Source of the DNA: Raillietiella orientalis
Lineage: Eukaryota
Length of the DNA: 64,000 nucleotides
Direction: 5' to 3'
Assembly (NCBI GenBank): GCA_036172245.1
Contig: JAYWIR010000011.1
Span: forward strand, 3,410,001 to 3,474,000
Part shown: piece after piece, positions 900-57,895 of the stretch
How positions within the stretch are numbered: the first letter of the stretch is position 1
Layout of the letters: each line of letters opens with the position of its first letter
Notes under the pieces: generated by a model
The model's database searches: none
Seen by the model: only the letters and a program-made list of their open reading frames with translations
Told to the model about the DNA's origin: nothing
Translations under genes and position numbers: made by a program

Positions 900-1571
900 A
901 ATGCTGATGGGAATCCTTTTGGGTCCTCCAGTTTTTTCTTATTTCCTTCCAGCTTTTTTTTTCGGAATTGCTTTTTTAGGGGGCCGCTAAGTGCTTAAGA
1001 ACCTCCTTAGGGGAGGCTCACGAAACTCTTCGGCGCTGTCCACGCCACCCGAGGGTGAGTGTTGACTCTTCAGTCAGAGGGTCTCCACGTAGGGACCACC
1101 TTGTGAATCCACAAAGGGATCCGGAGGAAGGAGTCCATTCCTCTTACTCTTGGGAGGACACCTCTTCCTTGCTCCTTCCGGAGGGACCCCTCTGTTTGTG
1201 GGCGCCACTCCTGATTCCCTTTCCGAAGGGAACCCGGAAAGCTCCTGACATTTATTCTCCAGAAGGGCCCCCTCGAAATGATATGCTATCCTTTTCTTTC
1301 TCCTGAAGAGAACCCGAAGGGATACCTTCAAATTCTCCTGAACGGTGCTCCCCGGAGGGAGCAGCGCTCTTCTTAATACTCTGGAAAAGCAATCCCCCCG
1401 AAGGGTTGATCCCTCAGAGTGATACCCCTCTGGGCTGTTGACCCTGGTACGGCTCCCTTTTCAAAACCGAATGCGAACCCCGAAGGACTCCTTGACTCCT
1501 GCAAAGAATCCAGACGGTCAACTTCTAATCCCAGTGGGTCAACGGGGAGATCCGGTTTCCGGCTTCCACCA
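900..1571 (-). repeat. tRNA-headed repeat family, copy A (body and A-rich end only; head missing)
   Basis: Aligns by eye to 49420-50170, 16250-16645 and 56280-56732; contains degenerate ~40-bp units with CCGAAGGGAACCC cores and a T-rich (+) tract at ~930-980. Confidence 0.75.
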
Positions 1572-1575
1572 TAGG

Positions 1576-1898
1576 TCTGCCTCCCTTAGGAAACACTTGG
1601 AGAGCAGCCTTACGGCTAGATTGGAGGTTACTGTGGAAACCTCCGGAAGGAGGAAAAGACGTGGACGACGGTCCAGCTCACCGACGCTGTGACCCCGATT
1701 TCTCGATTACATGGACTTTTGCACTAGGGCGGGCTACTAGGTATTTCGGGGGAAGACCTGCAGTGGCTCCCGGTGCTCATGAACACCCGCATCCTCCCCC
1801 TAAAGTGGCGGAGTCGGCATTGATGCTGCTGCATTGCGGTCTCCCGTGCAACACCCGCCGGCAGCTGTGGACACGGGTGTGTGGACCCAAACTGTACA
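1576..1898 (+). mobile_element. Fragment of the Tx1-like ORF2 3' region inserted in repeat copy A
   Basis: Highly similar to 56834-57165 (shared ESALMLLHCGLPCN..R.LWTRVC coding); begins just after the host sequence TTCCACCA. Confidence 0.8.
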
Positions 1899-11229: not shown

Positions 11230-13500
11230 GTGCACGGCTTCCTTTGGTGTGCAGGGCAGAAGGGAACACGTAGCGTCGCCCATGAGATTTTGCCGACATT
11301 CCGCCCAGCGTGATTGTAAACTGGTCCTGCTTAACAGAAAAGCGTGTGCTTCCGGAGGTTCGGGCCAGTACTAGTGGCATACCGAATAGAATGAGCGCCA
11401 GCAGTGGCAGACTGCACCAACCGTTGTACAACAGCCGTAAAAGCAACAGGATTCTAAAACACTTTTGGCTTCAAATCAGATGCTACACCCCCAAAGGATC
11501 GTTTTTCAATACCGGTGAGGCATCTCGGGGACTTCCAGAGCAGAAACACCTCGGGCAATCGGGAATCGTCGCATTAAGGGGCTTCCTGGACTGTCAGTGG
11601 AGAAGTGCTCACCCTTCTGAGATTTTCCGAGGAACGGTACACTTCGCCGACAGTCAAACTGGCCAACACGCGAAGCTCCCTTGTACCGTTCTTTCCCAGC
11701 TTTTCTCGAAGCAGTCTCTGCGCTGTGATTTTCCCTCCATCTTCCGGATCGGATTCGGTGCAAATGAATCAGCCAGCCGGCTGCTTGGGTGGGAGCCGAC
11801 GCTTTCTCGAACTCGGCACAAGAGATCGCTGCGGACCTTTACAGCGAGGATCTCCGTGGATCCTTGGGGAAAAACTGGGACTTCAGATGAGGGCCATGCC
11901 TCCCCCGCATCTGAAGGCGCTTTCGTGACTGATGGTGGCGATTCCCGACCACAGAGTGCGCTCGCAGGGGCGTCGCTGGCTTCTCGAGAAGGCGTCTCTG
12001 GAAGGCAGGTACGGTAACCTCCACCGGGCATCGCCCGCTTTCGGTGCGGGGCCGAAATCGAAAAAGCGACGGTTGCGAATCCCGAGAGTGCGAAGACAGG
12101 AACTCGGAAGGGGCGGCCATTTTGTTTGAAGGGCGGCCCCGTAGCTTCGGGGTGCCCGTCTGGCGACGTTCCTGGGTCGTTCGTCTTGCTGGAAGCGAAC
12201 CCGAACTTGTCCGGGTTCGTTTCCCGCAAACGAGCGAAAATTCGTCATCGGGAGGCACGCAGTCTTTTCGTGGTTGCCCGCACCACGCGGGCGTCCAAGG
12301 ATTGCCGAAGTGGAGGAATCCTCTTGCGCCAGAGCTTGCAGAGATGGCAGACGTCGCACGTTTTTGAGAAGGAAAAGAGTGCTTTCCTTGAGCCTTCTTC
12401 CTTCCTGAGCAGTGAAGAAGGATGGCGGACGTTTGCTCCGCGTTCGGGGACTGCTCCCATTTCGCCTCCGGCCCAGAAAAAAAACAAGCGAACGGAGAAG
12501 GTGCAAACCGCCCAGCGGAATGATGGAGAGGAGCGCCTCTGAAAAGAGTATGAAGAGAAATGAGATAGAGATTGGAATAAAAGATGGTTTAGGGTGATTC
12601 TGTGGTTTGTTTATTGGGATGGTGGTGAAGGATGGTAATCTAATATTAAGGTTGATTAGAAGGGAGATTGAAGAAGAGATGATTAGGGTGATTGCTAGTG
12701 GAGAAGGAATTCGTTCTAAAGTTATTCATTTTGGAAGGAAGCCTGGAAGAGGGGGCATGCCGGAGAGGTTTAGTAGTGTGAGGAATAGTATGGGTGGAGT
12801 GTAGGGAGTGAAAGCTGGTGAGGACTCGAGAAACGTCCGTGCAAAAATCGGAGCATCCTGGAAAGTTCTTGCACCGACGACGCGGGTGTGGGAGGTGCCC
12901 CTCTTGCTGTTCTTTGTGGCAAGTACACTTATCGGCAGGTGTTCATCCTAAACGGTAACCCACGGTTACAGGAGCAAGCAGAAACACCAACCAGGATTCA
13001 AATGGCGATTGCATTCGGCGCCCACAACAGCCAGGAATCAGTTTCCGGGGAAGCATTTCCCTTCTGCGTGCGCAGGAGAGTGTTGCATTTGGCGAGCGAG
13101 GTATCAGTGGAAGGGATGAGAAATGTTTTCATCTCCCCACGCGTCCATTCGTTTCCATTCCTCCAGGGTTTCTCAGCGAGCACGAAACTTTCAGCGCCAG
13201 AGAGGGGGTCAGCGACGTCGGTCGATTCGAACCAAAGTGGAGCGGGCAGAAGTTCGGTTGAAGAGAAACACTTGATTTTCATGCGTGGCTTCGGAAGATC
13301 CCGTGGGACGAGGTCGCAGCCCGGGTGGGCGAAGACTTGGATAGGTGTGCAGTAGCAGGGCAGTTGAATGGGAGCCACCCTTGCGACTGGGAACCTTGGG
13401 TCACGAGAAAGCTGAGTCTCCACTGGAACCTTCGACGAAGGATGATTGTCGGCGTTTCCGAGGGGGTGATCAGAAATGGCCACGAGGATCAAAGGACTGG
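11230..13500 (-). mobile_element. Decayed hAT-superfamily transposase
   Basis: Minus-strand blocks in hAT order: TFLIPSTDT, SPETDSW (first catalytic D, TxDxW), IIPLGGLHLLRSLV (CxxH-like), PPLRQSLDARV (PxxTRW-like) and C-terminal LPLLALILFGMPLVLARTSGSTRFSV (dimerisation-domain-like). No TIRs identified. Confidence 0.55.
12535..12828 (-). pseudogene. nad2: NUMT: 3' part of mitochondrial nad2
   Basis: In the invertebrate mitochondrial code the minus strand reads PPMLFLTLLNLSGMPPLPGFLPKW(TGA)MTLERIPSPLAITLIISSSISLLINLNISLPSFTTIPMNKPQNHPKPSFIPISISFLFMLF, matching the ND2 motif G.PP..GF.PKW; strong C/A strand skew unlike the flanks. Confidence 0.85.
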
Positions 13501-15300: not shown

Positions 15301-16645
15301 CCTTTGATTGGTTTTGCTCTCGTAGTGCTTTTGTCCGAAGAAGCAGTCCTCTTGCACGTTTTCCTGGAGCGTTTTTCAAGGCAGTCGAGACAGATGGAAA
15401 GTTCAGGTCGAGGCGCCCCAAACTCCGGCAGTGGCAGTTTCGAGTGCGCAAGCGCCGACCCACGTGATGGCGGTTCGCTTCCGACACGGTCTGGATTCGC
15501 TCTCGCAAGGATTCGCTCCCGAAATCGCATCCTAACGAAACGCGTCCTTCCTTTTCACCAGCTAAATACGACGATAGGAATAATACTTTTTTTTTTTTTT
15601 TCCTTAGAAATACATAAAATCTTTTAAAATGATTGCAGCTTGAGTTGAGGGCGAGAAATTTCTTTCCTTTTTCTTTTGTTCGTTCTCATGAACAAAAATG
15701 AATCCTCCACTCTTTGACCGTGGCATCCCAACTCGTTGCTAGGGGCGTGACGGAAGATTTCTGCTTGAGATGCACCTCCCCCCTTCCCTCCCAAAGACCG
15801 GGAGCCACGGGAAAATAGGAAACACGAAAGCCTGCCCCGGGGCTTCTGGACGCAACTGAGATTCCATGGAGAACGTCGTGGAAACCTCCCGATGCGAGTG
15901 CACCACTTTTTCGACCCCGAACTTTTTCCAGCCACCCCGCTCCCCTGTGAGAAGGAGCCACTGCCGGGCGCTCCGGGCCTGCTGTAACGCATTTCCGGGT
16001 GCGGAATGCCCTGTGTCCCGTGCCCTGCTCGAGATGGCGGCGCAGGGGAGGCGCCGCGCCGAACGTGCCCGCGCTTGACTAGTGCTGCCATCGAGGGGGG
16101 AGGGACGAAACCGCCACATTCCCGTCATCCGCACGCAGACTTTTCCTGAACTCTGAGGATATACTGGTGATCCGACAGGACAGGGGAGGATGGCCCGTTT
16201 CCCAAAAAGACTGGAAATCACGGGAAAATAGCAGACACGAAAAGAAGGAACCTTCTCTCTGGTTGTCTCCGAAAAGAAGCTATTCCTTATTTTCTCCGGA
16301 GAGACCCTCGAGGGAATAAGGAACTCCTTGTTTTTTCTCCGAAGGGAACCCTCGGAGGGGATAGCTCCTCGCTTCCTCCTCTGAAGAGAACCCCGAAGGA
16401 ACACTTCCCGATTTCTCTGAAGGGGTTGCCCGAAGGGAGCAGAGCGCTCCTTGACACTCTGGAGAGGTCATCAATCCACCAGCTCCATCATGCGAGATGA
16501 AGGGCCCACCCCATGAGGAGAGGACGGCTCTGTTTTCACAACCAGGGGGAACCCTGAAGGACTTCATGGTTCTTGAAAGGACCCCGAAGGGTGAACGTCC
16601 AATCCTGTTCAGTCAACGGGAGCATCCAGTTTCTACCAGTATCAC

Positions 16646-17193
16646 ACCAGTACTTAAAATACCCGGACGTTCCGTCGGGAGACTTCTGCTCCGCAGAAGC
16701 ACCCTGGTCCGGCCGTCTCCAGAAAGCACTGCAGGCTCTCCGTCCCTTTCAAAGATGCAGGTTTTACCTGCCGGAACAGGCTGCTGTGTGGAACATTCGT
16801 GGCCTCCCTCCTCCGCCCTCTGCTTTTTGTTTGTCCACCGCCCCGCAGCACCAGAGGAGGCCAGGACGACAGGCACGTCATCTATTTTGCCGTACTCTTC
16901 ATGAGAACAGCGTCAAGATGGCTCTGCCTGGGACATACTCAAAAGGAACTTGCCGGTATTCTTACAAGGACGCCCTCCAGAACACAGTAATCCCTTCCCG
17001 AACCCTCCCATTCTTTGACTGGATTTCTTGTTTGTCTCCCCTTCTCCTGTGCTGCCGAGGCGACCCGATGGCCTGCCTTCCAGATCCCTACAGTTCCTTC
17101 TCGTAGTTATAAGTAACGTGGCAGGATCAGACGTCCTGTTACAGACATGTATATTTATTTCATAAATAAACGCCCCGGCGTGACAGGGTGTTA
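16646..17193 (+). mobile_element. 5'-truncated Tx1-like retrotransposon 3' end (~550 bp)
   Basis: 16862-17193 is essentially identical to 57389-57720; ends AATAAACGCCCCGGCGTGACAGGGTGTTA; flanked by ACCAGTATCAC (16635-16645) and ACCAGTACCAC (17194-17204). Confidence 0.8.
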
Positions 17194-17295
17194 ACCAGTA
17201 CCACACTCGGAGAGCCCATAGGCCAATCGGAATCATTTTGCCGGGAGAAGAGCATTCGTAACCCACGACGCACCCTTTTCTTGTCATCGATCCTT

Positions 17296-17368
17296 CCTTG
17301 GATGGGATTCGAACCCGCAACGCTTGGTACCACACACGGAGACCGCGGCTACACGGCAGCCAATGCGG
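17296..17368 (-). ncRNA. tRNA-like head (Pol III A/B boxes), copy B
   Basis: Minus strand has an A-box-like TGGCTGCCGTGTAG and B-box GGTTCGAATCC with tRNA spacing; homologous to 57823-57895. Confidence 0.65.
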
Positions 17369-18299: not shown

Positions 18300-18920
18300 G
18301 CCCCTCCTGTCTACGACGCTCTACTTTCCCTTGCTGAAGGAGGCTGAACGACTTTCACCTTCGAGGGGCCTCTCCAGAGGGCATCCAACGACGCGCTCTT
18401 TCAGCTCTTTCAGAACCCCGAGGGCAAAGCCAAAGACGTTTTAAAGCACGTCTTCTTGCGCGACCTTTCACACTGGCCGCATCCCTAGAAGCACTTTGCT
18501 GCCTACGTCGGGTTGTGGCTTCACGGAGCTACGTCAGGGGAGGCCAGAACGACAAGGATGCCATGTATTGTGCTTCCTCCTGATCATGAGGATAGCGTCA
18601 AGATGGCCTCATCTGGGAGCCTCTAAACAGGAACTTGTCGGTATCCTTACATGGTTGCAAAGGACGCCCTCTAGCACACAATGATCCCTTACCGACCCTT
18701 CCGCCCTCTCCAGCAATTTTTTGTATTTTTTTGCTTTATTTTTCTTTCTGTTTGTCTCCCCTTCCCCTGTGCTGCCGTGGCGAACCTCGCCGGCCTGCGC
18801 GCCGGCTCTCGGCAGATTCCTTCTTCACATTTTTTAAGGTAGCAGGATCACGCATCTTACCACTGACGTCTTAAGTTTTATTTTCAATAATTAAACGCCC
18901 CGGCGTGACCGGGTGTCAAC
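18300..18920 (+). mobile_element. Diverged copy of the same Tx1-like 3' end
   Basis: Aligns to 57270-57720 (e.g. GATAGCGTCAAGATGG, AAGGACGCCCTCTAG, terminal TAAACGCCCCGGCGTGACCGGGTGTCAACC) with clearly lower identity; its flanks are not the tRNA-headed repeat. Confidence 0.75.
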
Positions 18921-41428: not shown

Positions 41429-44400
41429 ATGAAGCGAAGTATTCCTTCATATTTAGTTTTGACTATTTGGATTTTATCGCAGAATTTTTTGGATGCGAGT
41501 GTTTGCACATGCCATGGGAATCATCATGGAGAAAGCGAATGCTCGATTCACGAGAATGCTGTGCGGAGAATGTTGGGCACAATTTCAAGCGGTTGTGAAC
41601 AAGGTACGTTGTTTCTATATGTCTGATTCACGGTGGTAAATCGAGTTTGCCCTCTACAGGATAATAAATGGCGTGCTTTTTTTTTTTTTTTTTTTTCTTT
41701 AATAATAAAGCGAATCAATCTCTCGCATATCGAAACTGGTATGACTTTGGAAACAAATCTGTTCCACTTATCTCTTGTTTTGAATTTGTATTACCTGAAG
41801 TCTTGTGATTCTCACTTACAATATACCTCTTCAGCCCTTGAAGCTGCATGTTTGGATGCGGTGGATCTCTTACTACTTCTCTTATAATGTTACTTTTTTA
41901 TTTCAGTTCCGAAAGTGTGATAATCCACAGTTATTTAGAAGTGCACTCTGATTCAGGACTTTATCATATCTGGAGCATTCTAGCATTTTGTCGCTTCTCT
42001 CCTTTCTTCATTGGGGCACCGTTTCTTTTTGTGGTTGGGATGTGCATACCTCGATTCCGAATCCACCAACCATCCTCTCAAGTGACTGAGACACCGGTCA
42101 TTTTCCGAGACGGTTTTTCATGCTACTGAAGTCCTACCTGCTCCTTTGAGATGGAGCAGTAGCTTCACTTTGAGTGAAATTCTTTCGATTCTGTGTTCCC
42201 GTACTTTCAAGCAGGTTGACAAGAGACTGCATATCTGTCGGACGCGAGGTTGTTGGCCAGAGGAACAGCGGTGCTTTCAAACAGAGACTCGTGGCGCGTC
42301 CCAAACCGGCTCTTACGTGTTGGGTTCTGAACGCCTCTAGTGAGATGATCTCAAATCCTGCGGAAAAATTGGGCCATTCTTGGCAGTGTTCAGCTCGCCA
42401 CTCACTGCCGACCATCGGAGGCGCACGGACTGCCTCGAACCTTGGTTTTCCTCTTTCTTTCCATGTCCCAAAATCGATCCTCAAACCTTAGTGATGTCTT
42501 TCTGTTCCTCTTGGAACTGCAGAATAAAGAAGGCTGGAAATTGTGGAAGAGAAGGAAGGAAAGAGGATGTTGCTTTGGGGGCTTCTGATATCCTTCCATT
42601 CCATCGATGGGGGCAGTGCGAAGAGCTGGCCAGGTTCTTTCCAGACTCCACCCCAGAAGAACTTCGTGCTTTGCTCCAAAAGAGAGACATGCCCTGTAGG
42701 ATAGTTGCCCTGCGGCACCGTGACCTGCATGAAGAGGCTGGTGAAGACGGTTGGCCTGTTGATCGAAGCCGTCGCGACTGCCTCCAGCCAATAGCCGACT
42801 ATTTGCCAGACCATCCACGCTTCGCCGACGGCTCCAGACCGCACTTGCGGGTGGAACTGCTTCCCGAGAAGAGCGAATACCCTTTGGTACAGGACCCATC
42901 GCTTGCGTTTCATCAGAGATGCAGAGAGACGGTTCGAATGGCTCTCTCGGAGGGAATCCTCGATCTCAGTCCACACAAAGGCAGAAGTTTCCAAGAAAAG
43001 AGCGGGACATGCACCCTTTGCAGAACATCCTGAGGCCACAGGCTGCTGAGAAACGAGGATGCCTTCAAGAACCCTCTCTTCCCTCGCTTCCCTGATGAAC
43101 CAAGAGCACGCGGAAGTTCCGTGAGGAGCTGGATGCTACAGCTTCCGAGAGCGGAGACACCCTGTGGCGCGCACTCGACAAGCCTTCTCAGATTTGTCGG
43201 AGGTCAGACGTTGATGACATCCTCCTCTCACACCATCTCACAGGGACACGAACGCGACGAGGCCTGGAGGTGCTCTCCAGCTAGCTGTCGCGCCGCCGGG
43301 GAGAAGGTGCTCCAGCTCCTAGCAGGAGACCTCTCTCTGGAGCAGCTCTCCCTTCTCCTGAGTTCGCTCGTGCTAGTGATCAGTTCCAAGGGTCTCTGCG
43401 TTCCCGATTCCTCTTCTTTCCGAGCCACAAGGGTCGGTCAGACGTCAGAAATCTGCCTTCGTGCCCGGGGGCAGCCTTCCTAGGGGCTTTCGAAACTAGC
43501 GTTTTGCAATCTCTTTTCACTCTGGGAAAGAACTCGTTATTCTTTCCCCCGCCTCCCTCCCTCTCCTCATCCTAACTTGCACGTGCAGGAGTCCCTTGCG
43601 AGAGCGCTCGAAACTTTTCCCATCTCGCCCTGAATTTGGGCGTCCTTGACTGATAGGTTCGTCCTTAAGGAATCGGGTGGAAAACTTGCACCCCTGACCC
43701 TTCCCCTAGGCTCACTGATTCTTCCTGTCGAGGGGAAAGGGAGGAACAAAGAGAGGAACGGAGGAAACTGCGGTGTGGTTTATCCGGGAGGCGATCCCGG
43801 TAGCACTTCTCGGGAGTCACTTACAGAGCACGGCTGCGCGCAGCCCTGCAGCTCAGGGCACCCATGTGCGGTTTGCACGGCCAACGTGCGAGGCAAGCGG
43901 AGCCTCTGGGACACGGGTGCTAGCGGCGCGCGGCGAAGATACCCCCTGCAACTGGGGAGGCCTGGTCTTCCCGCTCGTCCGCTTCTCACGTTGTCCCCGA
44001 TAGCTCGGCTCGAAGGCGGAGCGCGGCGGGGATGGCTGAGGAGGAAGGATCGGGGGTGATCAGACTTAGGAGTCAACCAAGGAAGGAGAAGATCACGAGG
44101 CTCAAGAGGGAGGAAGAGGAGTAATGAAGAACCACTGCGGAGGGAGAGAAGCAAGGAAAGAAGAGAGGGACGTGGGATGGGCTGGAATGGGGGTTGCTGG
44201 AGGGCTGGTTCTCGTAGGGTCGTTAGGACAGGGAACCTCCTCGCCGCGGTGGAGACCAACAAGCCGCCGCCCCTAGGGATGTGAGTGGCAATTTCTGTTG
44301 TCCTCTCCCCCACGAAACCCCTCCGACAACCCACCGACCAGCCGTTCGCGGGCGCGAAAGCGCGCGGATTTGCCAGCTACCAGCTCCGCGGCCAGCGGGC

Positions 44401-45570
44401 CGATTGGAGAGCTGCTCCCGGACACAACAAAAGAGCGCGAGGTGAAGCGGCAAAAGGTTAGGGAGGGGGGAGATCCAGGGCCCTTCCTCCCTGGAGGTGC
44501 TCCTTGCGAAGGACAGGATGGCAGGATAAGGGATGCGGCGGTCGCTCCGATCACTCTCCCGCGGGTGGTTGGGTTGTCGCGCAAGGCGGCGTGCTTTATC
44601 GAGGGTATGCCGCCTCGCTCTTGCAGCCCCTCCCTCCCTCCTCAAGTAAACTCCTCCTCCGTCCCTCCCGGACGGAGGCACGTGCGTTTCCACGGAGCCT
44701 CACAAATTCCTCCCGGAGAAAGCCGCGAGGCAGGGAGGGAGGTTGGGGTGTGGTGGCGCCGTCTTGGAAGCGACTGCTGAAGGCGGCGTGTCATGCGTTG
44801 CAGGTGCAGCGACCTCCTCGTGGCAGTCGAAGATGCTCTCCGAGTTCGCTGTACTGAAGAGTCTGCTGATCGACATGGAGAGGAGGCTGAAGAGGGTCAT
44901 GGAGCCGAGCCGAGATGGTGGCGCCGCCGTTCCGGAGATGTTGGCTCCAGTGCGTCCCGCGGAAGAGTCTGTGCTGCCGCCAGTGCGTCCCGCGGAAGAG
45001 TCTATGCCGCCGCCAGCGCCTCCGACGATGCTGGAAGAGGTCTCGGATCCCGCGGTAACGGCAGCTGCCGTCGAGCGGGAGGAGGAAATCCGCCGGTTCA
45101 ACAACTCGGTGACCTCGCGGGGGGGCAAGGAGCTCTTCCGGTACTACTGGCGCGTGAGGGACGTCCTGCGCAAGATGAGGGAGGTGGAGGAGGAGTACTC
45201 GGAGAGGAGCACGGACTTCTACGTGCTGCCCCACTACTACCGTCTATACCTGCGGGCCTTCCCAAGGGACGCTGACGGCCAGTTCCAGTTGCGCGTGGGG
45301 CTGACCCCGGGCGAGTTCGACGACCGAATCGAATGGCCCTTCGCCCTGCGCTTCCGCGTCTCCATCCTAGACCACTCTCCGGAGAGGGAGGACGTCTCCT
45401 CGAGGATCTGGAACCCCAGTGAGCTCTGCTCCGAATGGAACTGGAAGAGGCCGGAGAAGAAAGACAACTTCGAGTGCGTCCGGCTGGGCATCCCTCACTC
45501 CCTGCTACTGGGCAGCAACCAGTATGTGGCCGACGGCTCCCTCGTGATCCGGCTGACGGTCTTCGTGTGA
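41429..45570 (+). CDS. Putative secreted coiled-coil + MATH/TRAF-domain protein (313 aa, 2 coding exons)
   Basis: Exon 41429-41603 (signal-peptide-like MKRSIPSYLVLTIWILSQNFLDASVC, phase-1 donor AAG|GTACG) joins exon 44804-45570 (acceptor TTGCAG|GT) in phase; the C-terminus has MATH motifs YYWRV, FYVLPHYYRLYLRAFP, GEFDDRIEWPF, YVADGSLVIRLTV. Confidence 0.8.
42100..43450 (-). mobile_element. Decayed Tx1-like ORF2 (post-RT region) inside the MATH-gene intron
   Basis: Minus-strand RVFALLGKQF...W and LLEQSTKFFWGGVWKE...LPPSMEWKDIRSP resemble the KYLG and F.W.G...P...GG blocks. Confidence 0.55.
43780..44075. repeat. Dispersed repeat segment, direct copy at ~50945-51240
   Basis: Shared sequence such as CGGGTGCT.GCGGCGCGCGGCGAAGATACCCCCTGCAAC.GGGGA.GCCTGGTCTTCC; probably part of a retrotransposon. 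Confidence 0.8.
44947..45012 (+). repeat. In-frame 33-bp tandem duplication (PVRPAEESxxP x2)
   Basis: CCAGTGCGTCCCGCGGAAGAGTCTGTGCTGCCG followed by CCAGTGCGTCCCGCGGAAGAGTCTATGCCGCCG. Confidence 0.95.
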
Positions 45571-48700: not shown

Positions 48701-49419
48701 CCGGTGCAGCGTGGGTGAATTTGTCCGCAAAACACAGATGGTCTCCATGTCGCTTGGAGCCGCAGTTCACTGTCAGACTTCCTCCTCTGGTAAAAAAAAA
48801 CAACCATCAGAGCTTTCGCATAGTAAGATAAAGAACACCGCGAACTGCTTGAAAGGAATTCTGGGAAGTTTCTCGACCTGCCACAGACAGAAAGCACTCT
48901 AAGAGCGAAGTGTCCCTGAATTTCAGATTTTTCTCCATCTTCGAAGGTTGCAGATTCGTTTCTGAAGATAGCAGAAACCTTGGCGACTTCCTGCCTCGCA
49001 AAGACGTGGGTTTTGGACCCTTAGCTCTGTATTCTTGCCTACACCAGGACAACGTGACGCCCACGACCAAATCTTGCACTTCTGACTTGCTCTCACAATC
49101 CTCCAAGGGAAAAAGAAAAACGGATTCGTTGACCCATATGAATTGGTGGTCCAGGAAGATGGCGCAGCTTTGCTGACAAGTATGAAGGATTCGAATGGAG
49201 CTATTTATATGGACGCTTGGATGATCGGATGCCTAAATAAAAAGATCAGAAGAATGAATAATGCCAGATGGATGGTCGGATACGTTTGTGTGCACGAGAT
49301 GCTGTTTCTATTTGCCACGATTGCTGCTGCATCTGGATGATTGGATCTGCAGGAGGGAGCGTGGAAGAAGAAGAGAAAAGGCTAGGCATCGAGAAGCATC
49401 TTTCTGAGAAAACCCAAAG

Positions 49420-50338
49420 GATGATGGAAATCCTTTGGGTTCTTTCTTTTTCTGTATTCGCTGTTTTTCTTCCAGTTTTTTTTTTTTTTCTCGGGTTTTC
49501 TTTTTTGGTTCACTAAGTATCTCAAGAGCCATAGCGCTCCTGGTGACGGCTCATGCAGTTTTTTGACACTGTTCACACCACCTGAGGGTGCATGTAATTC
49601 TTCAAGATAGGGGCTGCCCTGGGAAGGGTTCGCCCTATGAATCCAGGAAGGGATCGGAGTCTGTTCCTCTCACGCCTGGGGAGCATCCCTCAAGGGAACC
49701 TCCACCCTGGTTGTCTCCAAAGAGGAACCCCGAAGGAAATCACACTTTCCTTATTCTCTCAAGAGGGACCCCCGAAGGGGTCCGCTCCATGTTTTCTTCC
49801 TCGAAAGGAATCAACAAGGATCCCCTAGTAGGAATTTCTTCTCCGGAGGGGACCTGCAAATGAACCTCTCCTGTTTACTCCCCTGAAGAGGACCCCGAAG
49901 GGATGCTTCCGAAATTCAGAAGGTGCTGCTTCCCCGAAGGGATCGTTCGCTTTTCTGCACTCTGCAAGATTGCAGGAAAACGAGCAATCCCTGGAGAGGT
50001 GATTCTCACACTTACTCCATCAGAACGACGCGGAGGGGCCCCCACACTGGGGAGTCTGCTCTCCTTATCACAACCGGAGGGGGAACTCCCCAATCCTTGA
50101 TTTCTGAAAGGACTCGCAGGTCGACTCCCATTTTTCCGGACACTTCCGGCATCCGATTTTAGCCTCTACCAGTGCCTCACCCGAATGAATAGAGGTCAAC
50201 CAGCGTCATCTCGCGGGGGGAACTCAAACCCACGACGCACCCCCATCTCTCGGCGTCGATTCATTTCGGAGTATTCGAACCCGCCACGCCTGGTGGCGCC
50301 ACGCACAGAGACCGTAACCACAAAGCCCCTGACGCAGG
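49420..50338 (-). repeat. tRNA-headed repeat family, copy C (complete, uninterrupted)
   Basis: Head with B-box GGTTCGAAT (~50263-50338), spacer AACCCACGACGCACCC, a single target-like ACCAGTGCCTC (50168-50178), minisatellite body and T-rich (+) tract at 49440-49510. Confidence 0.8.
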
Positions 50339-51979
50339 CGGAGGCTTTATGGTTACAGTGAAGGATTGAGGTTATGGATGTAGACAAAGAACAAACCGTC
50401 TCCTTGTGGTCCATCAAGGAGGAAGAATGAAAAAGATTCACGAAAAGGGGAAAGCAGACCGACGTTCTAACTCAGTTGCTGAAAGTTCCAGTGCCTCCTT
50501 GATGTTGCGCGTCGGGATTGGGACTTAGAGGCATCGCTTAAGCCGTTCCGGGATTCCACTCTTCCTTGTTCCCACCAGATGGTCGGTTTGAGGAGCTTTG
50601 GATTTCGTTCAGGCCAAGGGGGTAGTGGTGTGCCCTTTCTCTTTGCCTTCCGCATCTTCCTCCCCAACCTTTCCTGAAGAAACTGCGTCTTTCTTAGAGT
50701 GCTCTCTTCCTGGGGAGGAAGCGAAACAGGAACAGGAAGCGGGGAGCACACGGAGACCCCGACTTTCCCGAAAGAGTCCTTTCACCGCCAGGCGGTGCGG
50801 CATTTTTCGACTTCCCCGTCCGATTAGCCCTTGTCCCAGACCCTCCTCCGGGGATACTCCGCCCATGCACCTCGCAACTGAACGGGGAGAGTCTCCAGAC
50901 GGTGAGAAACCGTAGTGAACTACCCTCTTCTGAAGGGATTCCTGTTCCATCCCAGGAAGGACCTCAGTAGCACCCCTCGGGAGTCATTTCCAGGGCACGG
51001 CTGCACTCAGCCTCGCAGCTCAGGGTGACCTCGTGCAGGGTACGCGGCCAACGTGCGAGGCATGCGGAGCCGCCTCTGGGACGCGGGTGCTGGCGGCGCG
51101 CGGCGAAGATACCCCCTGCAACCGGGGAAGCCTGGTCTTCCTTCTCGCCTGCTTTTCACGTTGTCCCCGATCGCTCGGTGCGAAGGCGGAGCGCAGCGGG
51201 GGTGATGGAAGGGGAGGGATTGGGGGTGTTCAGACTAGCCGTCTCAGGGGTCACGCAGGGAAGGGGCGGGGCTCGAAGGGGAGGAAGAAGAGGATGCTGC
51301 CCAGGGAAACCTCGCACGTTCGGCCGCGCGCGCGCGCAGGCCTCCCGTTCCTTGCGCTTCTACCTCTCCTGCAGGATCCGTGGCCGCCGTTCAGCCCGTG
51401 CCTTAACCTGCTTCCGCCGGTCCCCTCTCCTTGCCTCGTGCTCCAAAGGAACGAAGGGCTAGGTGGGTGGTGGCTAGTCCTCCATCCCTTCTAGGCCGCG
51501 TTCCTCTCCCTGCCGCCCTTCTAGGGCGCCGAGCGGCCCTGCGCGCGATCCTTTTCTCGGTAGCCAGCGGACGGACAACTCTTCCTCGAAGCTCTCTTTC
51601 GCTGCTACACAGCGTTGCGTCTCCGGAATCTCCAAGGAGGTCCATGGGAAGGAAGCTGCGCTAAGGAGGGACTTCCTTGGGGAGAAACCCTTTGGCTTGC
51701 CACTCAAAGGTCCCCTTCGGACTGCTGCTGCTTCTTGCGCACAAGCGCCTCGGTCTTCCCGTCTTCCCGGCCCGATTCGTGTCTCGGCACTCCCACAGAA
51801 GACCGCAGGGAAAGCAAACCTTTCGTCCTCGTAGATAAGGGATGACCACTTGACATTGCTTCCCTCCCGCGCTCCCTCAGCCGATCCCCTCCATCTCTAG
51901 GCATTTATGGAACCTCGCGCCGCGGTTGTTCGAGGTTTCCCCTGATTCAAGGACCACATCTGTCAACATACATCCGTTC

Positions 51980-54900
51980 CAGTGGGAAAGAAGGGGCCGT
52001 GGCCGCGACAGCGGAAGAGTCATCTTCTCCAGCGTCCACGCCATCCGGGACATCCGGGTTTCTTTCTGGAGTCTGTTATCTTAGCGCAAAGTTCTTTTAA
52101 TGGAAAGAAAACATTCCTAAGAGTTTCTCGACTGCATGGGGAGGGGGGGGAAGAGGAGAGCCAGTCGAGGCGGGCGATCCCACGTGCGGACCGGCCCTTA
52201 AACAAGCAAAGGGAAGGAAAGGAAGAGGATCTTCTGCAGCAGGACAGCGTTCACGCCCTCGCGGGATCCGTAGAAAGGGTGCTCGAAAAGGGGAACCGCG
52301 GGACAGAAGCAGGGCCGCGAGAGTTTCGGCAGGGTTTTTCCCTTCCGAGGCGGACCGGGGATTCAAGCAGGACTCCTCCAGAACGCGTGTTCCGGGAAAG
52401 ACGCAAAAGTTGGGTCCACGATGCACGGATTGACAAAATCCATCTCCAGGCGCGCGTCCTCGGACCCTCCGGCAGCAGGTGCCTTTGTCTGGCGCTTCAT
52501 GCGATGATGGGTGTGAGGAGCAGAAGGGATTGGATGGTGAAGGGGGCGGGGGAGGGAAAAGGCAGAGTTCCCTTTTTGCTCCATCGAGCTGCTCTCACTC
52601 TCGGAAGACCACGGGGGAGAGAAGGGATGGAAGGGGGGAGCTCTCAGCGGCTCCTTCTAGCATGCCGAGAATACTAAGGCAGAAAAAAAATGCCCTTTGA
52701 ACGCAGGGTGGGCTGTCCGTCTCCCTAGAAATCACTGCGTTTGCGCTTTCTCCTGCCTCCTCATTAGAAAGCAGTAAATCTCTCTGGACTGAGATTCATC
52801 TCACAATACGATAAAATCGACCTCTCTGTCGAAGGATGCTCCATGGTGCAGCATGATGTGAAGCAAAAAATCGATAAAGGACTAATGCTGCGAAGCGCAA
52901 CTTTTTAAGATCTCTTCGATCGGTCCAGAGAACTGGAATCAACTAAGCCATGCTCGAAGGCCGTCGTCATGGACCTCTCCCTCCCACTGGACCTCCAGAG
53001 TCTCTGCGCAGTGCTCGTCACCATCCTCGAGGAATGGTGCTCCCAAGCTCTTCTGCGTGCAACGTCGAGACCTTCCTCCTGCTGGCTCTCTGGCTCCCTG
53101 GGAACCGGCTGCTCCCCTGGACAAGGGTAGCTGGCAGGGCAGGAACAGCCTTGTCCTCCGGATGCACGCATCTTGAGGACCGGTTGCTTAGCCGATCATT
53201 CCTCCGTTGGATTCCCGCTTCACTGGCCACGGTCCCGTCGCCCGCAGCAGACGAGCACCCTGCTCGGGATTTGGTGAGCACCTCGACGTTTGGCTCGTCA
53301 CAAAGCAGAAACCGAGCCGGCGCTCCATGCACTCAAGTTTGCTCTCTGGGGCATTGCGCACAGCATGCCAACGTTCCGTGCTTCGGCTCCAAACAGCTCG
53401 GACTTCTCACCCACCGAAAGGTCGAGAGTGGGGTCGAGGTCACTTGGACCACATGATCTACAGTCATTTCCTCAGTCATCCCTAACTTTTGCCTCTCTTT
53501 GGTCCATGACTGAGACCTTTACGATGGATGCAGCAGATCTGAACGATGGATTTCAGCTTTCCTTTTCTGATTCTGTCTTGGAGATGCTGTTGCCTTTGCA
53601 GGGTCGGGAGGCAGTAGTTGCTCCTGGACCCCGCGATGCTACCCCAGCTCGAAGGTCCTTCCTTGCCCATGTGAAAATTCGGCAGTTCGCCGTTCGGGAA
53701 AACGTCCAAGTGTCTTGGACCAGCTTCTTCACGAAGCCATTTTTTTTTTTTCTTACTCTCAGGACCGCTCGACCGCCTCTGTCCCTTCACCCACCTCGAG
53801 CGTCAGCTGGTCGCTTTCGCCACCGCCCGCACGTGGACCGGCCTCTACCTTCCGGATCTGTCGGTGGAATGTTCTAGTCGCACCGGGGCCCGCGTGGCAG
53901 GGGGCGACCGAGTCGTCCAAAGAGTGCGGTTCGCCGCCGCCTCCACCTTGCTCCACTTGCTCGCCGAGCACCTCTTCCCACTGGCGGTGCGTTCTCAGGC
54001 CTTTGTTCCGGGTCTCTCCGAGCGTCCTCCGCGCGGGGCGGGAGGCGCGGATCGAGCTTGCCAGACGCTTCCTCCCGCTGGCGCTCTCTGCCTCGGAAGA
54101 CCGGCGAGCAGGAAGCGGGAAAGTTTTTGGAATCTCTCGAGATGCTCGCTGCTTTCGCCTAGGATGCTGTTGGGGTCATGTGAACAAGCAGGCAGTAAAG
54201 GGAATGCGGAGCGCAGTCTCCTGAGCTCAAAGAGCTTCGATTCTTCCAAAGAAAGTCTCGTGGATGTATCCAGGAGGTCGTCTGTTCGGTGAAACTTTCT
54301 GAGCTAACTGCCTCTAGCAGCAGAAGACTCACCACTGTTCGATGCTTTTTTTTTCCATCTTTGTCCGTATCCACTTCCCCACATCAAGGGAACCAGCTGC
54401 CTTGCTGAATATTCTAAGCAAGTTGCCCAGTCGGCGAAGATCGGTGAAGGCTCCTCTTAAGCGAGGTGGTCTTTAAACAAGACTGTTCCACTAGCAAGGA
54501 GCGAATGTAGATGAAGGGCATCAGACTCAGCACCTTTGACCTGATCCGTTGCATCCCATCAGCTCTGCGGTTGCGCTAGAAGTGACATTGAAAGCGTATC
54601 TAGTTCAAGGCATAGTTAAACGTATATGGGGAGTTAAAATTAGGGGATGCACTTCAACCTCTAGGAGATCGATCTACAATTCTCCTGGCGTGCTCGTTCC
54701 AGCTCACACAGAAAATTCCAGGTGCCCGAGGCCGCAACTCGCTTTCCATGCGTCAACCGCCCTTCCCGATCAAAAGCATATGTTCTGGAAGGATCTCCGC
54801 TCTCATAAGCTGTTTAAATTACAAGAGACATCCCTGTATTTTGCTAAACGGATGACGTCATCTTTGCGATGAGCAGTGCTCCCGAACCCTGGATCGAGTT

Positions 54901-55519: not shown

Positions 55520-55835
55520 CTTCTGAAACGGAAACGAACGAAAGATTGACGAAATTTGACATCAGAGAGCAAGGACTTTCGAGCTGGGGTGGTATCGCGG
55601 GATCCACGGAACAACCACTGTTTCTGACTCTGCAAGGACAGCAGTATATCCAGGACGGAATCAGAGAAGGAAAGCTGCAATCCATCGTTCAAATCCCCTT
55701 CATCCATCGTTAAGATCACAGTCATGAAACGAAGAGAGGCAAAAGCGAAGGATGACTGAGGAAATGACTGGAGACCGTGTGGTCCAAGTAACCTAGACCC
55801 CACTCTCGACCTTTCGGTGGGTGAGAAGTCCGGCT
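55520..55835 (+). repeat. Inverted copy of ~53395-53710 (RT-coding fragment)
   Basis: GACTTCTCACCCACCGAAAGGTCGAGAGTGGGGTC at 53401 is exactly reverse-complemented at ~55796-55830, and similarity extends ~310 bp. Confidence 0.9.
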
Positions 55836-56732
55836 TGCTTGCCGCCGAAGCTCGTACAGTTCTGCGCTCATCCTCGCGTGGTAGAGCACAGGGATGCTCT
55901 CTGCATCGGGTCTTCCAGGGAACAAGACGCCACCGGACGGGGGAGCAGTAGAGCTGAACTTGCTTAGGTCAGGGGCAATCGAATCGCTCTTGCATCTGTT
56001 GTCAGACTTCGGTTCCTCCCGAAGAAGAAGAGTGAGGGGACCAGCAGAAGCCTTCGCGGGACAGGGGGGGGCAGCTGCCTCTGGAGAGCTGCGCCGCGAG
56101 CAGCGGACTTTCAGCCCACTTCCCCGATCGCGACCCCGCTATGTGTCGGAGAGGTCGCTCTACCTGCTACTCCCCTGGAAGAGCTAGTCCAACAAACAGA
56201 GGAAGACCATACCCCAAAAAGGGGACAGAATGACTCCATGTGAAAGAAGGAGTGAGGAAGGGTGAGGTGTCTTGGAGTTCTAGTGGACACCCCGGGAAAG
56301 GGACCACCCTATGAATCCAGGAAACCACCGAAGGAAGGAGTCCCTTCCTCTTACTCTTGGGAGGGAACCTCTTCCTTGTTTTCTCCGGAGGGACCCCCCT
56401 AAGAAGAGGGGACTACCCCTCTTTTCTTTTCCGAAGGGAACCCCCAAGAAAACCGTTCCTTGATTCCTCCTCTAAAGAGAACCCCGAAAGGCGCTCTCCG
56501 AAGGGAGCAGCTCGCTTTTTGACACTCCGGAGAGACGAATCCCCGAGCTCCACGGTACGCGAACTTTCTCAACGGTCAGGTCGCCTCCCGAAGCAGGGAG
56601 AACCAGTTTTGTTTTCACAACCAGAGGGGGCCCTCCGAAAGAAACCAACTGCTTGATCCCTGGGAGGACTCGAAAGGATCAACGTTCAATATCGTTTGGT
56701 CAATGGAGGTATTTAGTTTCCACCAGTACCAC

Positions 56733-57720
56733 GACCGTTTCCTGTACGCGCGCAACAACAACTGCACGGTCCGGGAGATCCTGGAAGACCCAACGAAGAG
56801 TGCATGGGCTAGCAGAACCTCCCTCGCAGCCGCTCTGCCCCCTCTTAGGAAACACTTAAAGAGCAGCCTTACGGCTAGATGGGAGGTTGCTGTGGAAACC
56901 TCCGGAAGGAGGAAAGGACTGGGCGAGTGGATGACGGTCCAGCTGACCTGCGCTGCGACCCCGATTGCTCGATTATATGGACTTTTACACTGGGACGGGC
57001 TACTGGGTATTCCGAAGGAAGGTCTGCAGTGGCTCCCGGTGCTCATGAACACCCGCATCCTCCCCCTGAAGTGGCGGGAGTCGGCGTTGATGCTGCTGCA
57101 CTGCGGCCTCCCGTGCAACGCCCGCCGGCATCTGTGGACACGGGTGTGTGTAAACCCAAACTGTGCAAGGTGCGGGAGCGGAATCTCTCCTACATTTACT
57201 AGTGAACTGCATTGCCCTAGCTTCTTTGAGGAAGGTTTGCAACCCTTGGAACCCCCGGAGGCTATTCCCGAGACATTTTAAAGCGCCTCATTCTGCGCGA
57301 CGTCCTCACACCGGCCGCATCCCTAGCAGCACTTTGCTGTCCAAGCGGCGGGACCGTGGCTGCATGGAGCAGCAACAGCAGAGAAGGTCAGGACGACAGG
57401 CACGTCATCTATTTTGCCGTACTCTTCATGAGAACAGCGTCAAGATGGCTCTGCCTGGGACATACTCAAAAGGAACTTGCCGGTATTCTTACAAGGACGC
57501 CCTCCAGAACACAGTAATCCCTTCCCGAACCCTCCCATTCTTTGACTGGATTTCTTGTTTGTCTCCCCTTCTCCTGTGCTGCCGAGGCGACCCGATGGCC
57601 TGCCTTCCAGATCCCTACAGTTCCTTCTCGTAGTTATAAGTAACGTGGCAGGATCAGACGTCCTGTTACAGACATGTATATTTATTTCATAAATAAACGC
57701 CCCGGCGTGACAGGGTGTTA
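56733..57720 (+). mobile_element. 5'-truncated Tx1/L1-clade non-LTR retrotransposon (988 bp) with 11-bp TSD
   Basis: Encodes a zf-RVT-type C-terminus LPLKWRESALMLLHCGLPCNARR...NPNCARCG / ESLLHLLVNC (one frameshift); AATAAA at 57692-57697; flanked by identical ACCAGTACCAC at 56722-56732 and 57721-57731. Confidence 0.88.
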
Positions 57721-57822
57721 ACCAGTACCACACCCGGAGAGCCCATAGGCCAATCGGAATCATTTTGCCGGGGGAAGAGCATTCGTAACCCACGACGCAC
57801 CCTTTTCTTGTCATCGACCCTT

Positions 57823-57895
57823 CCTTGGATGGGATTCGAACCCACAACAATTGGTTTCATGCGCAGAAACCGCGGCCACACGGCCGCCAACAAGG
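57823..57895 (-). ncRNA. 73-nt tRNA-like cloverleaf (repeat head, copy D)
   Basis: Minus strand CCTTGTT-GG-CGGC cgtgtg GCCG-C-GGTTTC tgcgcat GAAACC-AATTGTT-GTGGG ttcgaat CCCAT-CCAAGG shows four stems. It lacks U33 and has no oligo-T terminator, so it is not called a functional tRNA. Confidence 0.7.

Follow-up and report, generated by a model that had tools for sequence, protein, structure and literature searches.

Why is one short site in a diverged repeat occupied in three of its four copies by pieces of the same sequence, and how many times was it hit? The question is raised by 64,000 nucleotides of Raillietiella orientalis DNA (GenBank assembly GCA_036172245.1, contig JAYWIR010000011.1, positions 3,410,001 to 3,474,000 of the forward strand), which we call the window; every copy count and comparison below refers to this one 64-kb window. 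A host repeat of about 0.9 kb is present there in four diverged copies, A to D. In copies A, B and D a retroelement-like insert occupies the same site with the same orientation, running in all three antisense to the transfer RNA (tRNA)-like head of the host; copy C is empty. An initial annotation of the window had described these filled and empty copies as well as the antisense orientation, and we recover both, with the copies at the positions it had named. We suggest, as a reading that is probable though by no means secure, that the insert is a retrotransposon without long terminal repeats (non-LTR) and with strong preference for one site of a repeat resembling short interspersed nuclear elements (SINEs), with two or more separate events on record here. 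The sequence facts on which this reading builds are real and far beyond chance.

The evidence starts from copy D, where the insert, resembling long interspersed nuclear elements (LINEs), together with its borders, is composed as follows.

56722..56732, plus strand: left copy of the 11-bp target-site duplication ACCAGTACCAC, an exact match
56733..57720, plus strand: LINE-like retroelement fragment of 988 bp, 5'-truncated, bounded by perfect duplications; its sequence is common to copies A, B and E (E being a relative outside the host repeat)
56733..57210, plus strand: open frame, from the first base of the insert (the truncation point) to the Cys-X2-Cys-X6-His-X4-Cys motif
57162-57210, plus strand: Cys-X2-Cys-X6-His-X4-Cys motif, split by a +1 frameshift at about 57177-57180
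57692..57720, plus strand: element 3' end, with AATAAA at 57692-57697, a possible terminal hairpin at 57697-57718 and no poly(A) tail
57721..57731, plus strand: right copy of the 11-bp duplication, an exact match

The earlier statement that 988 bp lie between two perfect 11-bp copies is borne out by these exact matches. In the whole window ACCAGTACCAC occurs exactly three times (56722-56732, 57721-57731 and 17194-17204), and every occurrence is a junction. When up to two mismatches are allowed, it has 16 matches in the window; 100 shuffles gave a mean of 8.4, none of them reaching 16. In the alignment, host copy C runs uninterrupted across the insertion point and carries a single ACCAGTGCCTC. 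Copy C thus represents a paralogous empty site, and the 11-mer of D a true target-site duplication. At the other side of the element, AATAAA stands 24 nt before the end of the D insert, and the terminal sequence of this 3' end is kept in copy E as well. RNA folds of the D and E 3' ends were not above those of shuffles (z = -1.44 and -0.05, respectively); the D fold includes the terminal hairpin.

What kind of repeat is the target? The parts of its four copies are these.

905..1566, minus strand: host copy A, A-rich tail end and body, placed by alignments; it ends in ...TTCCACCA, 7 bp short of the junction position of B and D
16247..16645, minus strand: body of host copy B, ending in ACCAGTATCAC (16635-16645)
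17194..17366, minus strand: right duplication copy (17194-17204), host flank and head of copy B, with the B-box at 17305-17315
49422..50339, minus strand: host copy C, empty, with a single target-like ACCAGTGCCTC at 50168-50178 and the B-box-like GGTTCGAATAC at 50271-50281
56262..56732, minus strand: body of host copy D (its left part on the plus strand), 72-76% identical to A, B and C at ungapped positions
57732..57843, minus strand: flank of host copy D between insertion site and B-box, the latter being GGTTCGAATCC at 57832-57842; the "young patch" that D has in common with B
57823..57895, minus strand: host copy D, tRNA-like head, degenerate (best Rfam match tRNA-Sec: 17.1 bits, E = 0.62, below the gathering score of 47)

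Read on the minus strand, the repeat begins with the degenerate tRNA-like segment, followed by about 90 nt. Beyond these lie the 11-mer target, some 750 nt of body and, last, an A-rich tail. The tail end is seen only in copies A and C, and relative to these two about 150 bp of it are missing from D. In the left part, the six pairs of host copies are 72-79% identical at ungapped positions (58-65% when all columns are counted), and the family is old. Target-site duplications of the host copies themselves were sought: none of at least 8 bp flanks B or C, and a single 8-bp word was found for D, the copies being old. The body contains no tandem repeats according to Tandem Repeats Finder, which reported only a T-rich tail array in C. 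As for the head, B and D carry the B-box GGTTCGAATCC unchanged, and C departs from it by one mismatch. The best Rfam match, tRNA-Sec, was obtained in D only and remains below the gathering score, with no match in B; ARAGORN finds 0 tRNA genes in the whole window. "SINE-like with a tRNA-related head" is a fair label for the host repeat, short of established membership among the tRNA-derived SINEs. The site had been placed 92 bp from the 3' end of the tRNA-like head. This distance is confirmed in D, while the head itself proves weak (17.1 bits against 47, and no gene by ARAGORN).

Three further observations concern the host repeat. Copies B, C and D, otherwise about 25% diverged, agree throughout a 16-nt block (GGGTGCGTCGTGGGTT on the minus strand). 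It was located by eye at 57783-57798 in D, 17256-17271 in B and 50222-50237 in C, lies within the roughly 90 nt between head and target, and contains a second B-box-like GTGGGTT motif. A perfect 10-bp hairpin (CCCAAAGGAT ... ATCCTTTGGG, window 49405-49440) spans the tail-end boundary of copy C, with a partial counterpart at the same end of copy A. A candidate for a fifth host head, a B-box with one mismatch at 13223-13233, was rejected as unlike the host by eye.

Besides D, the element is present in the following fragments.

1567..1898, plus strand: element fragment of copy A, corresponding to D 56826-57167
16646..17193, plus strand: insert of copy B, 548 bp, between ACCAGTATCAC (16635-16645) and ACCAGTACCAC (17194-17204)
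16646..16844, plus strand: segment X, the 5' side of the B insert (about 200 bp), beginning with a partial third target copy (ACCAGTAC)
16845..17193, plus strand: element 3' part in copy B, corresponding to D 57372-57720 and 98.8% identical to D 57372-57711
18399..18919, plus strand: copy E, the 3' end of a diverged element relative, 68-69% identical to D 57237-57728, outside the host repeat

Copy A has lost the 3' part of the element together with the host head. That it carries the same element after ...TTCCACCA had been claimed before and holds, 297 of 330 ungapped positions being identical to D. For B, a fragment of about 550 bp between two target variants had been reported; length and borders are right (548 bp), and only the 3' part of about 335-350 bp belongs to the element. 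Within it, B 16862-17204 is identical to D 57389-57731 at 343 of 343 positions, that is, over the last 332 bp of the insert plus the duplication. Segment X has no other match in the window, and its comparison with all parts of the element on both strands gave z of at most 2.2, none above shuffles. It could be the 5' end of the element (B would then be an internally deleted derivative), filler captured at the 5' junction, or another element.

In D coordinates the 5' ends are 56733 (D), 56826 (A), about 57385 (B) and about 57237 (E), so that all four differ. The 3' end is the same in B, D and E, the three copies which retain one. A common 3' end combined with variable 5' ends is the usual picture of 5'-truncated LINE copies. 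The duplication matches at 11/11 positions in D and at 10/11 in B. Three of the four element copies sit at the one host site and the fourth, E, which is absent from the initial annotation, elsewhere. The right flank of E resembles none of the three host heads better than shuffles do, and its left flank reaches at most a nominal 12-14/300 shuffles for two of the four host bodies. No target-site duplication was found around E, the best shared word being 7 bp. The first 11 bases of its 3' flank match the target at 7/11 positions (p = 0.0076, for a comparison chosen after seeing the data).

Are the three filled copies products of one event? In D the insert follows the host 11-mer, in B it follows this copy's own variant ACCAGTATCAC, and in A it begins 7 bp earlier. 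Between A and D, mismatches amount to 125/440 in the host-left part (28%) against 33/330 in the insert (10%; Fisher p = 1.6e-10). Between B and D, they amount to 89/368 in the host-left part (24%) against 0/343 in the element 3' part and duplication. In both pairs the insert is much younger than the host, which makes a single ancestral insertion copied together with its host unlikely. The A-D differences within the insert are distributed over codon positions as 11/9/11, and 24 of the 31 are transitions; they read as neutral decay after insertion. Decay of this neutral type would make A the older hit, and D and B very recent.

We hypothesize the following course of events. A non-LTR element of LINE type would have been integrated by target-primed reverse transcription, the copy seen in D being a dead, 5'-truncated one. 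Its preferred target would be one short site, ACCAGTACCAC and its surroundings, in an old SINE-like repeat, entered always antisense to the head and presumably read by an endonuclease. At least two separate hits would then be recorded. A would be the older, with an insert 10% diverged from that of D, and D and B would represent one or two very recent ones. We infer that B, too, began as a separate insertion. The initial annotation took the different 5' ends as a sign of independent insertions, and this stands in part: the ends differ and the divergences disagree, but the right flank of B is recently shared with D.

Several points weigh against the proposed preference of a LINE for this site. 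The sample is tiny, with four host and four element copies from one window and three filled copies to carry the case; all lie within 57 kb, a distance at which repeats are likely to undergo ectopic exchange. Of the three 3' junctions that are visible, that of E lies in non-host DNA, though its subfamily is only 68-69% like D. The young D copy already bears a frameshift inside its Cys/His motif. Pfam, phmmer and PDB searches provide no homology support for the insert being a LINE, and no reverse transcriptase (RT) or endonuclease is found anywhere in the window. Further, the two duplication copies of B differ at 1/11 positions though its element part equals that of D over 343 bp. Finally, the right flanks of B and D are 97.3% identical, against 58-79% in all other host comparisons (18 pairs or segments).

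The last point deserves a closer look. From left to right, the likeness of B and D changes as follows.

Host left of the insert: 279/368 identical (75.8%)
D 57389-57731, element 3' part and right duplication: 343/343 identical, all 16 CpGs intact
D 57732-57843 = B 17205-17316, the adjoining 112 bp of host flank, as far as the B-box end: 109/112 identical (97.3%), 8/8 CpGs intact in both
D 57844-57893, tRNA-like part beyond the B-box: 36/48 identical

Compared with the 112-bp flank, identity is significantly lower both in the tRNA-like part (p = 4e-5) and in the left host (p = 1.5e-8). Hence the element 3' end, the right duplication copy and the 112-bp flank go back to a recent common source in B and D, unlike the remainder of these host copies. 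Because of this anomalous likeness, which had escaped the initial annotation, the 3' junction of B does not count as independent evidence. The unequal duplication copies of B find their explanation here as well, since its right copy was recently shared with D along with the element 3' end and flank.

Two routes could lead to such a patch. Firstly, separate hits on B and D could have been followed by ectopic gene conversion that was seeded by their long stretch of identical element sequence and extended about 110 bp into the flank; B and D are only 40 kb apart. Secondly, B could stem from a read-through transcript that included the flank of its donor, with reverse transcription primed inside this flank. 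The flank has 3/112 differences and the element 0/345 (in a separate alignment count; p = 0.014), which neither route predicts outright. The second route can be extended to homology-guided retrotransposition. Source copies would reside in host repeats, and their transcripts would read at least 110 nt into the downstream host. Priming would take place in the flank of the recipient near the conserved B-box, not at the element 3' end, and each insertion would overwrite the recipient's flank and right "duplication" with those of the donor. We put this forward as a speculative and rather unlikely proposal. If true, it would have left in nature a homing-like footprint of the read-through annealing that has until now been demonstrated only in engineered R1/R2 assays.

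Homology, instead of the specificity of an endonuclease, might also have done all of the spreading. One or two chance landings would be followed by transfer of the filled state to other host copies through ectopic gene conversion or one-sided homologous repair between repeats lying close together. The 40 kb between B and D, their 343 identical bp continued by a 97.3% identical 112-bp flank, and the sharp fall of identity to 75% past the B-box and 76% on the left all agree with this, as does copy E, by which relatives of the element are seen to insert elsewhere too. However, the three 5' junction structures differ, and a junction spread by conversion would be reproduced unaltered. The left breakpoint of B falls at the same host nucleotide as that of D, but within B's own variant. 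The insert of A is 10% away from that of D, which still calls for two or more founding insertions at this one site. We regard spread by homology as improbable.

Is the insert a LINE at all? It had been called zf-RVT-coding and Tx1-like. Pfam zf-RVT (PF13966) gave no match, neither with the separate frames (E up to 1) nor with the frameshift read through (E up to 10). Other Pfam families gave only chance-level rows on the frame of 180-234 residues (zf-NPL4, E = 0.038; CYLD_phos_site, E = 0.11). In phmmer, the 180-residue frame obtained two matches among 1.84 billion representatives, both to internal tandem repeats of unrelated proteins, one of these a class II alpha chain of the major histocompatibility complex. 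A PDB search with the frame returned one 31-residue chance row and nothing relevant, and the single-sequence AlphaFold2 model is unusable (predicted local distance difference test, pLDDT, 32.7). A feature search in the ESM Atlas placed 27 of 30 named matches in clusters in which 29-35% of members carry PF13966. Its scores are 0.96 and its recognition value lies below the tool's own benchmark. We treat these zf-RVT look-alikes as a lead only, and the zf-RVT assignment has no support from sequence or profile searches.

The window offers no further help with the clade. RVT or endonuclease families were absent from the 336 open reading frame (ORF) translations scanned, in which the only families at E <= 0.01 were DNMT1 domains, FANCA-N and MATH. 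None of 248 ORFs of 70-119 residues from the GC-rich parts had a Pfam family at 1e-4. The name Tx1-like is backed by neither hidden Markov models nor sequence matches, and the window holds no RT by which a clade could be assigned. Could the insert then be a retroposed or mobile sequence of a different kind (a processed transcript, for instance, or a non-autonomous element), with a Cys/His motif by coincidence? Its frame is recognised by no sequence or profile search and is broken in the youngest copy. On the other hand, copies with a common 3' end and variable 5' ends, the 11-bp duplication in D and the existence of several copies in diverged subfamilies (D/B, A and E) argue for a LINE. So do the many pieces 80-90% alike in a sequencing run of a relative (89 contigs) and, as a lead only, the zf-RVT clusters. 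We find a non-LINE origin quite doubtful, and a LINE is what the insert would seem to be.

The public run just mentioned (0.06 of sampled words) yielded 89 short contigs fitted at 80% likeness and 80-95% like the element and host body. Being short pieces of what is evidently a relative, they speak neither for nor against the presence of the host flank and were not used as evidence. They cover parts of host body and element; 73 of the 89 were under 90% alike, and 95% ran on into unlike sequence. Just past the right duplication there is almost no cover, and the contigs decide nothing about flanks. Pattern scans of metagenomes with the element 3' end and with the host head gave 0 loci each.

A single ancestral insertion, whose composite was then duplicated and suffered deletions at the 5' junction, was already disfavoured above and seems very improbable to us. 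It would explain why all three filled copies agree in site and orientation, and why the right duplication copy, 3' junction and proximal flank are alike in B and D. It is contradicted by the incongruent divergence of host and insert (A-D 28% against 10%, B-D 24% against 0%) and by 5' ends which differ, with every join no more than 7 bp away from one host position. Further, the empty copy C is no more diverged from the other copies than those are among themselves.

The weakest explanation, which we can hardly credit, is targeting of position through the RNA polymerase III machinery on the tRNA-like head instead of recognition of DNA sequence, on the model of TRE3, an L1-type element of Dictyostelium which inserts 40-150 bp downstream of tRNA genes and in the orientation of the gene (PMC5911963): in both B and D the site does lie 92 bp past the 3' end of the tRNA-like part and at 101 bp from the B-box, inside the range of TRE3, but the orientation is opposite here, the junction is at one nucleotide and not spread over a window, the head is decayed (17.1 bits in D, no match in B), and ARAGORN finds no tRNA gene in the window and so none near E. 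The parallel with TRE3 drawn in the initial annotation is accordingly kept for the distance of 92 bp and given up for orientation and sharpness of the site (PMC5911963). Sequence and position are not separable as long as the target itself is a repeat.

The surroundings of these copies are of two kinds. An AT-rich, gene-bearing block at about 20-42 kb (33-41% GC) is sharply split from repeat-rich blocks of 50-64% GC on both sides, and all copies of the host repeat and the element are in the GC-rich blocks. A DNMT1-type methyltransferase gene has exons in the AT-rich block (at 23.1-27.3 kb on the plus strand, with introns of roughly 55 nt), in which RFD, BAH and methylase domains are encoded. 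Its catalytic exon shares 71-79% identity with DNMT1 from insects, cnidarians, sponges and vertebrates and has no relative closer than these, by which the genome is of animal type. A weak FANCA-N match lies at 37.0-37.6 kb on the minus strand. In DNA of 64% GC, an open frame of 306 residues (44650-45567, plus strand) has a MATH/TRAF domain (E = 5e-12) and belongs either to a host gene or to a repeat. Just upstream of host copy D, the arms of an inverted repeat at 53370-53605 and 55626-55861 (236 nt, 84% complementary, 2020 nt apart) may be the ends of another mobile element. A direct repeat in two copies, 79-87% identical and about 7.17 kb apart (43793-44066 and 50960-51236), is also found in the GC-rich block.

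Known targets of site-specific LINEs comprise ribosomal DNA, arrays of small nuclear RNA and tRNA genes, microsatellites, DNA transposons and LTR elements. Should a genome-wide count bear out the preference, a SINE-like retroposon would join this list. No LINE aimed at an internal site of a SINE surfaced in our literature searches, which were not designed to prove absence. Once confirmed, the copies would also form a dated series of hits on one site (A older, D and B recent), suited to studying how long a specificity lasts.

For the patch between B and D a precedent may be seen in R2 and R1, LINEs specific to ribosomal DNA. In assays with R2Ol, 100 nt of downstream 28S sequence in the template anneal to the target and raise integration from 12% to 96% (PMC6530143). 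This offers a parallel for the thought that the right flank of B might have arrived with the RNA. For R2 and R1, overwriting of the recipient's flank by a downstream one is not reported, unlike here, where 112 bp appear to have been replaced; the mechanism of such replacement is our suggestion from one pair of copies. The pair may be a rare natural footprint of downstream target sequence in a template RNA taking part in integration. With TRE3 our element shares insertion about 100 bp downstream of a tRNA-type B-box (PMC5911963). TRE3, however, inserts in the same orientation, over a spread of 40-150 bp and at functional tRNA genes, and here we have the antisense orientation, a fixed nucleotide and a decayed head.

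The closest comparison is with LINEs of the Tx1 clade, which pick fixed positions in other transposon families. Tx1L enters the piggyBac-type Tx1D of Xenopus, Tx1-Mar of crocodilians inserts antisense near position 240 of Mariner-N4_AMi, and other Tx1 families target Harbinger or LTR elements (PMC4494074). The insert described here resembles Tx1L and Tx1-Mar in its preferred position and fixed orientation inside copies of an unrelated transposon family. The clade is described as found in animals (PMC4494074), and the genome here is animal-type by its DNMT1. Our case differs from Tx1L and Tx1-Mar in that the target is a SINE-like retroposon with a tRNA-like head and not a DNA transposon. It differs also in that three filled copies stand against the dozens to hundreds of the published cases, and in that no RT or endonuclease is found in the window. 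A LINE with a fixed target site in another transposon family has been published before (PMC4494074). Taken together, we are probably dealing with a site-preferring non-LTR retrotransposon whose target is new and whose habit is known.

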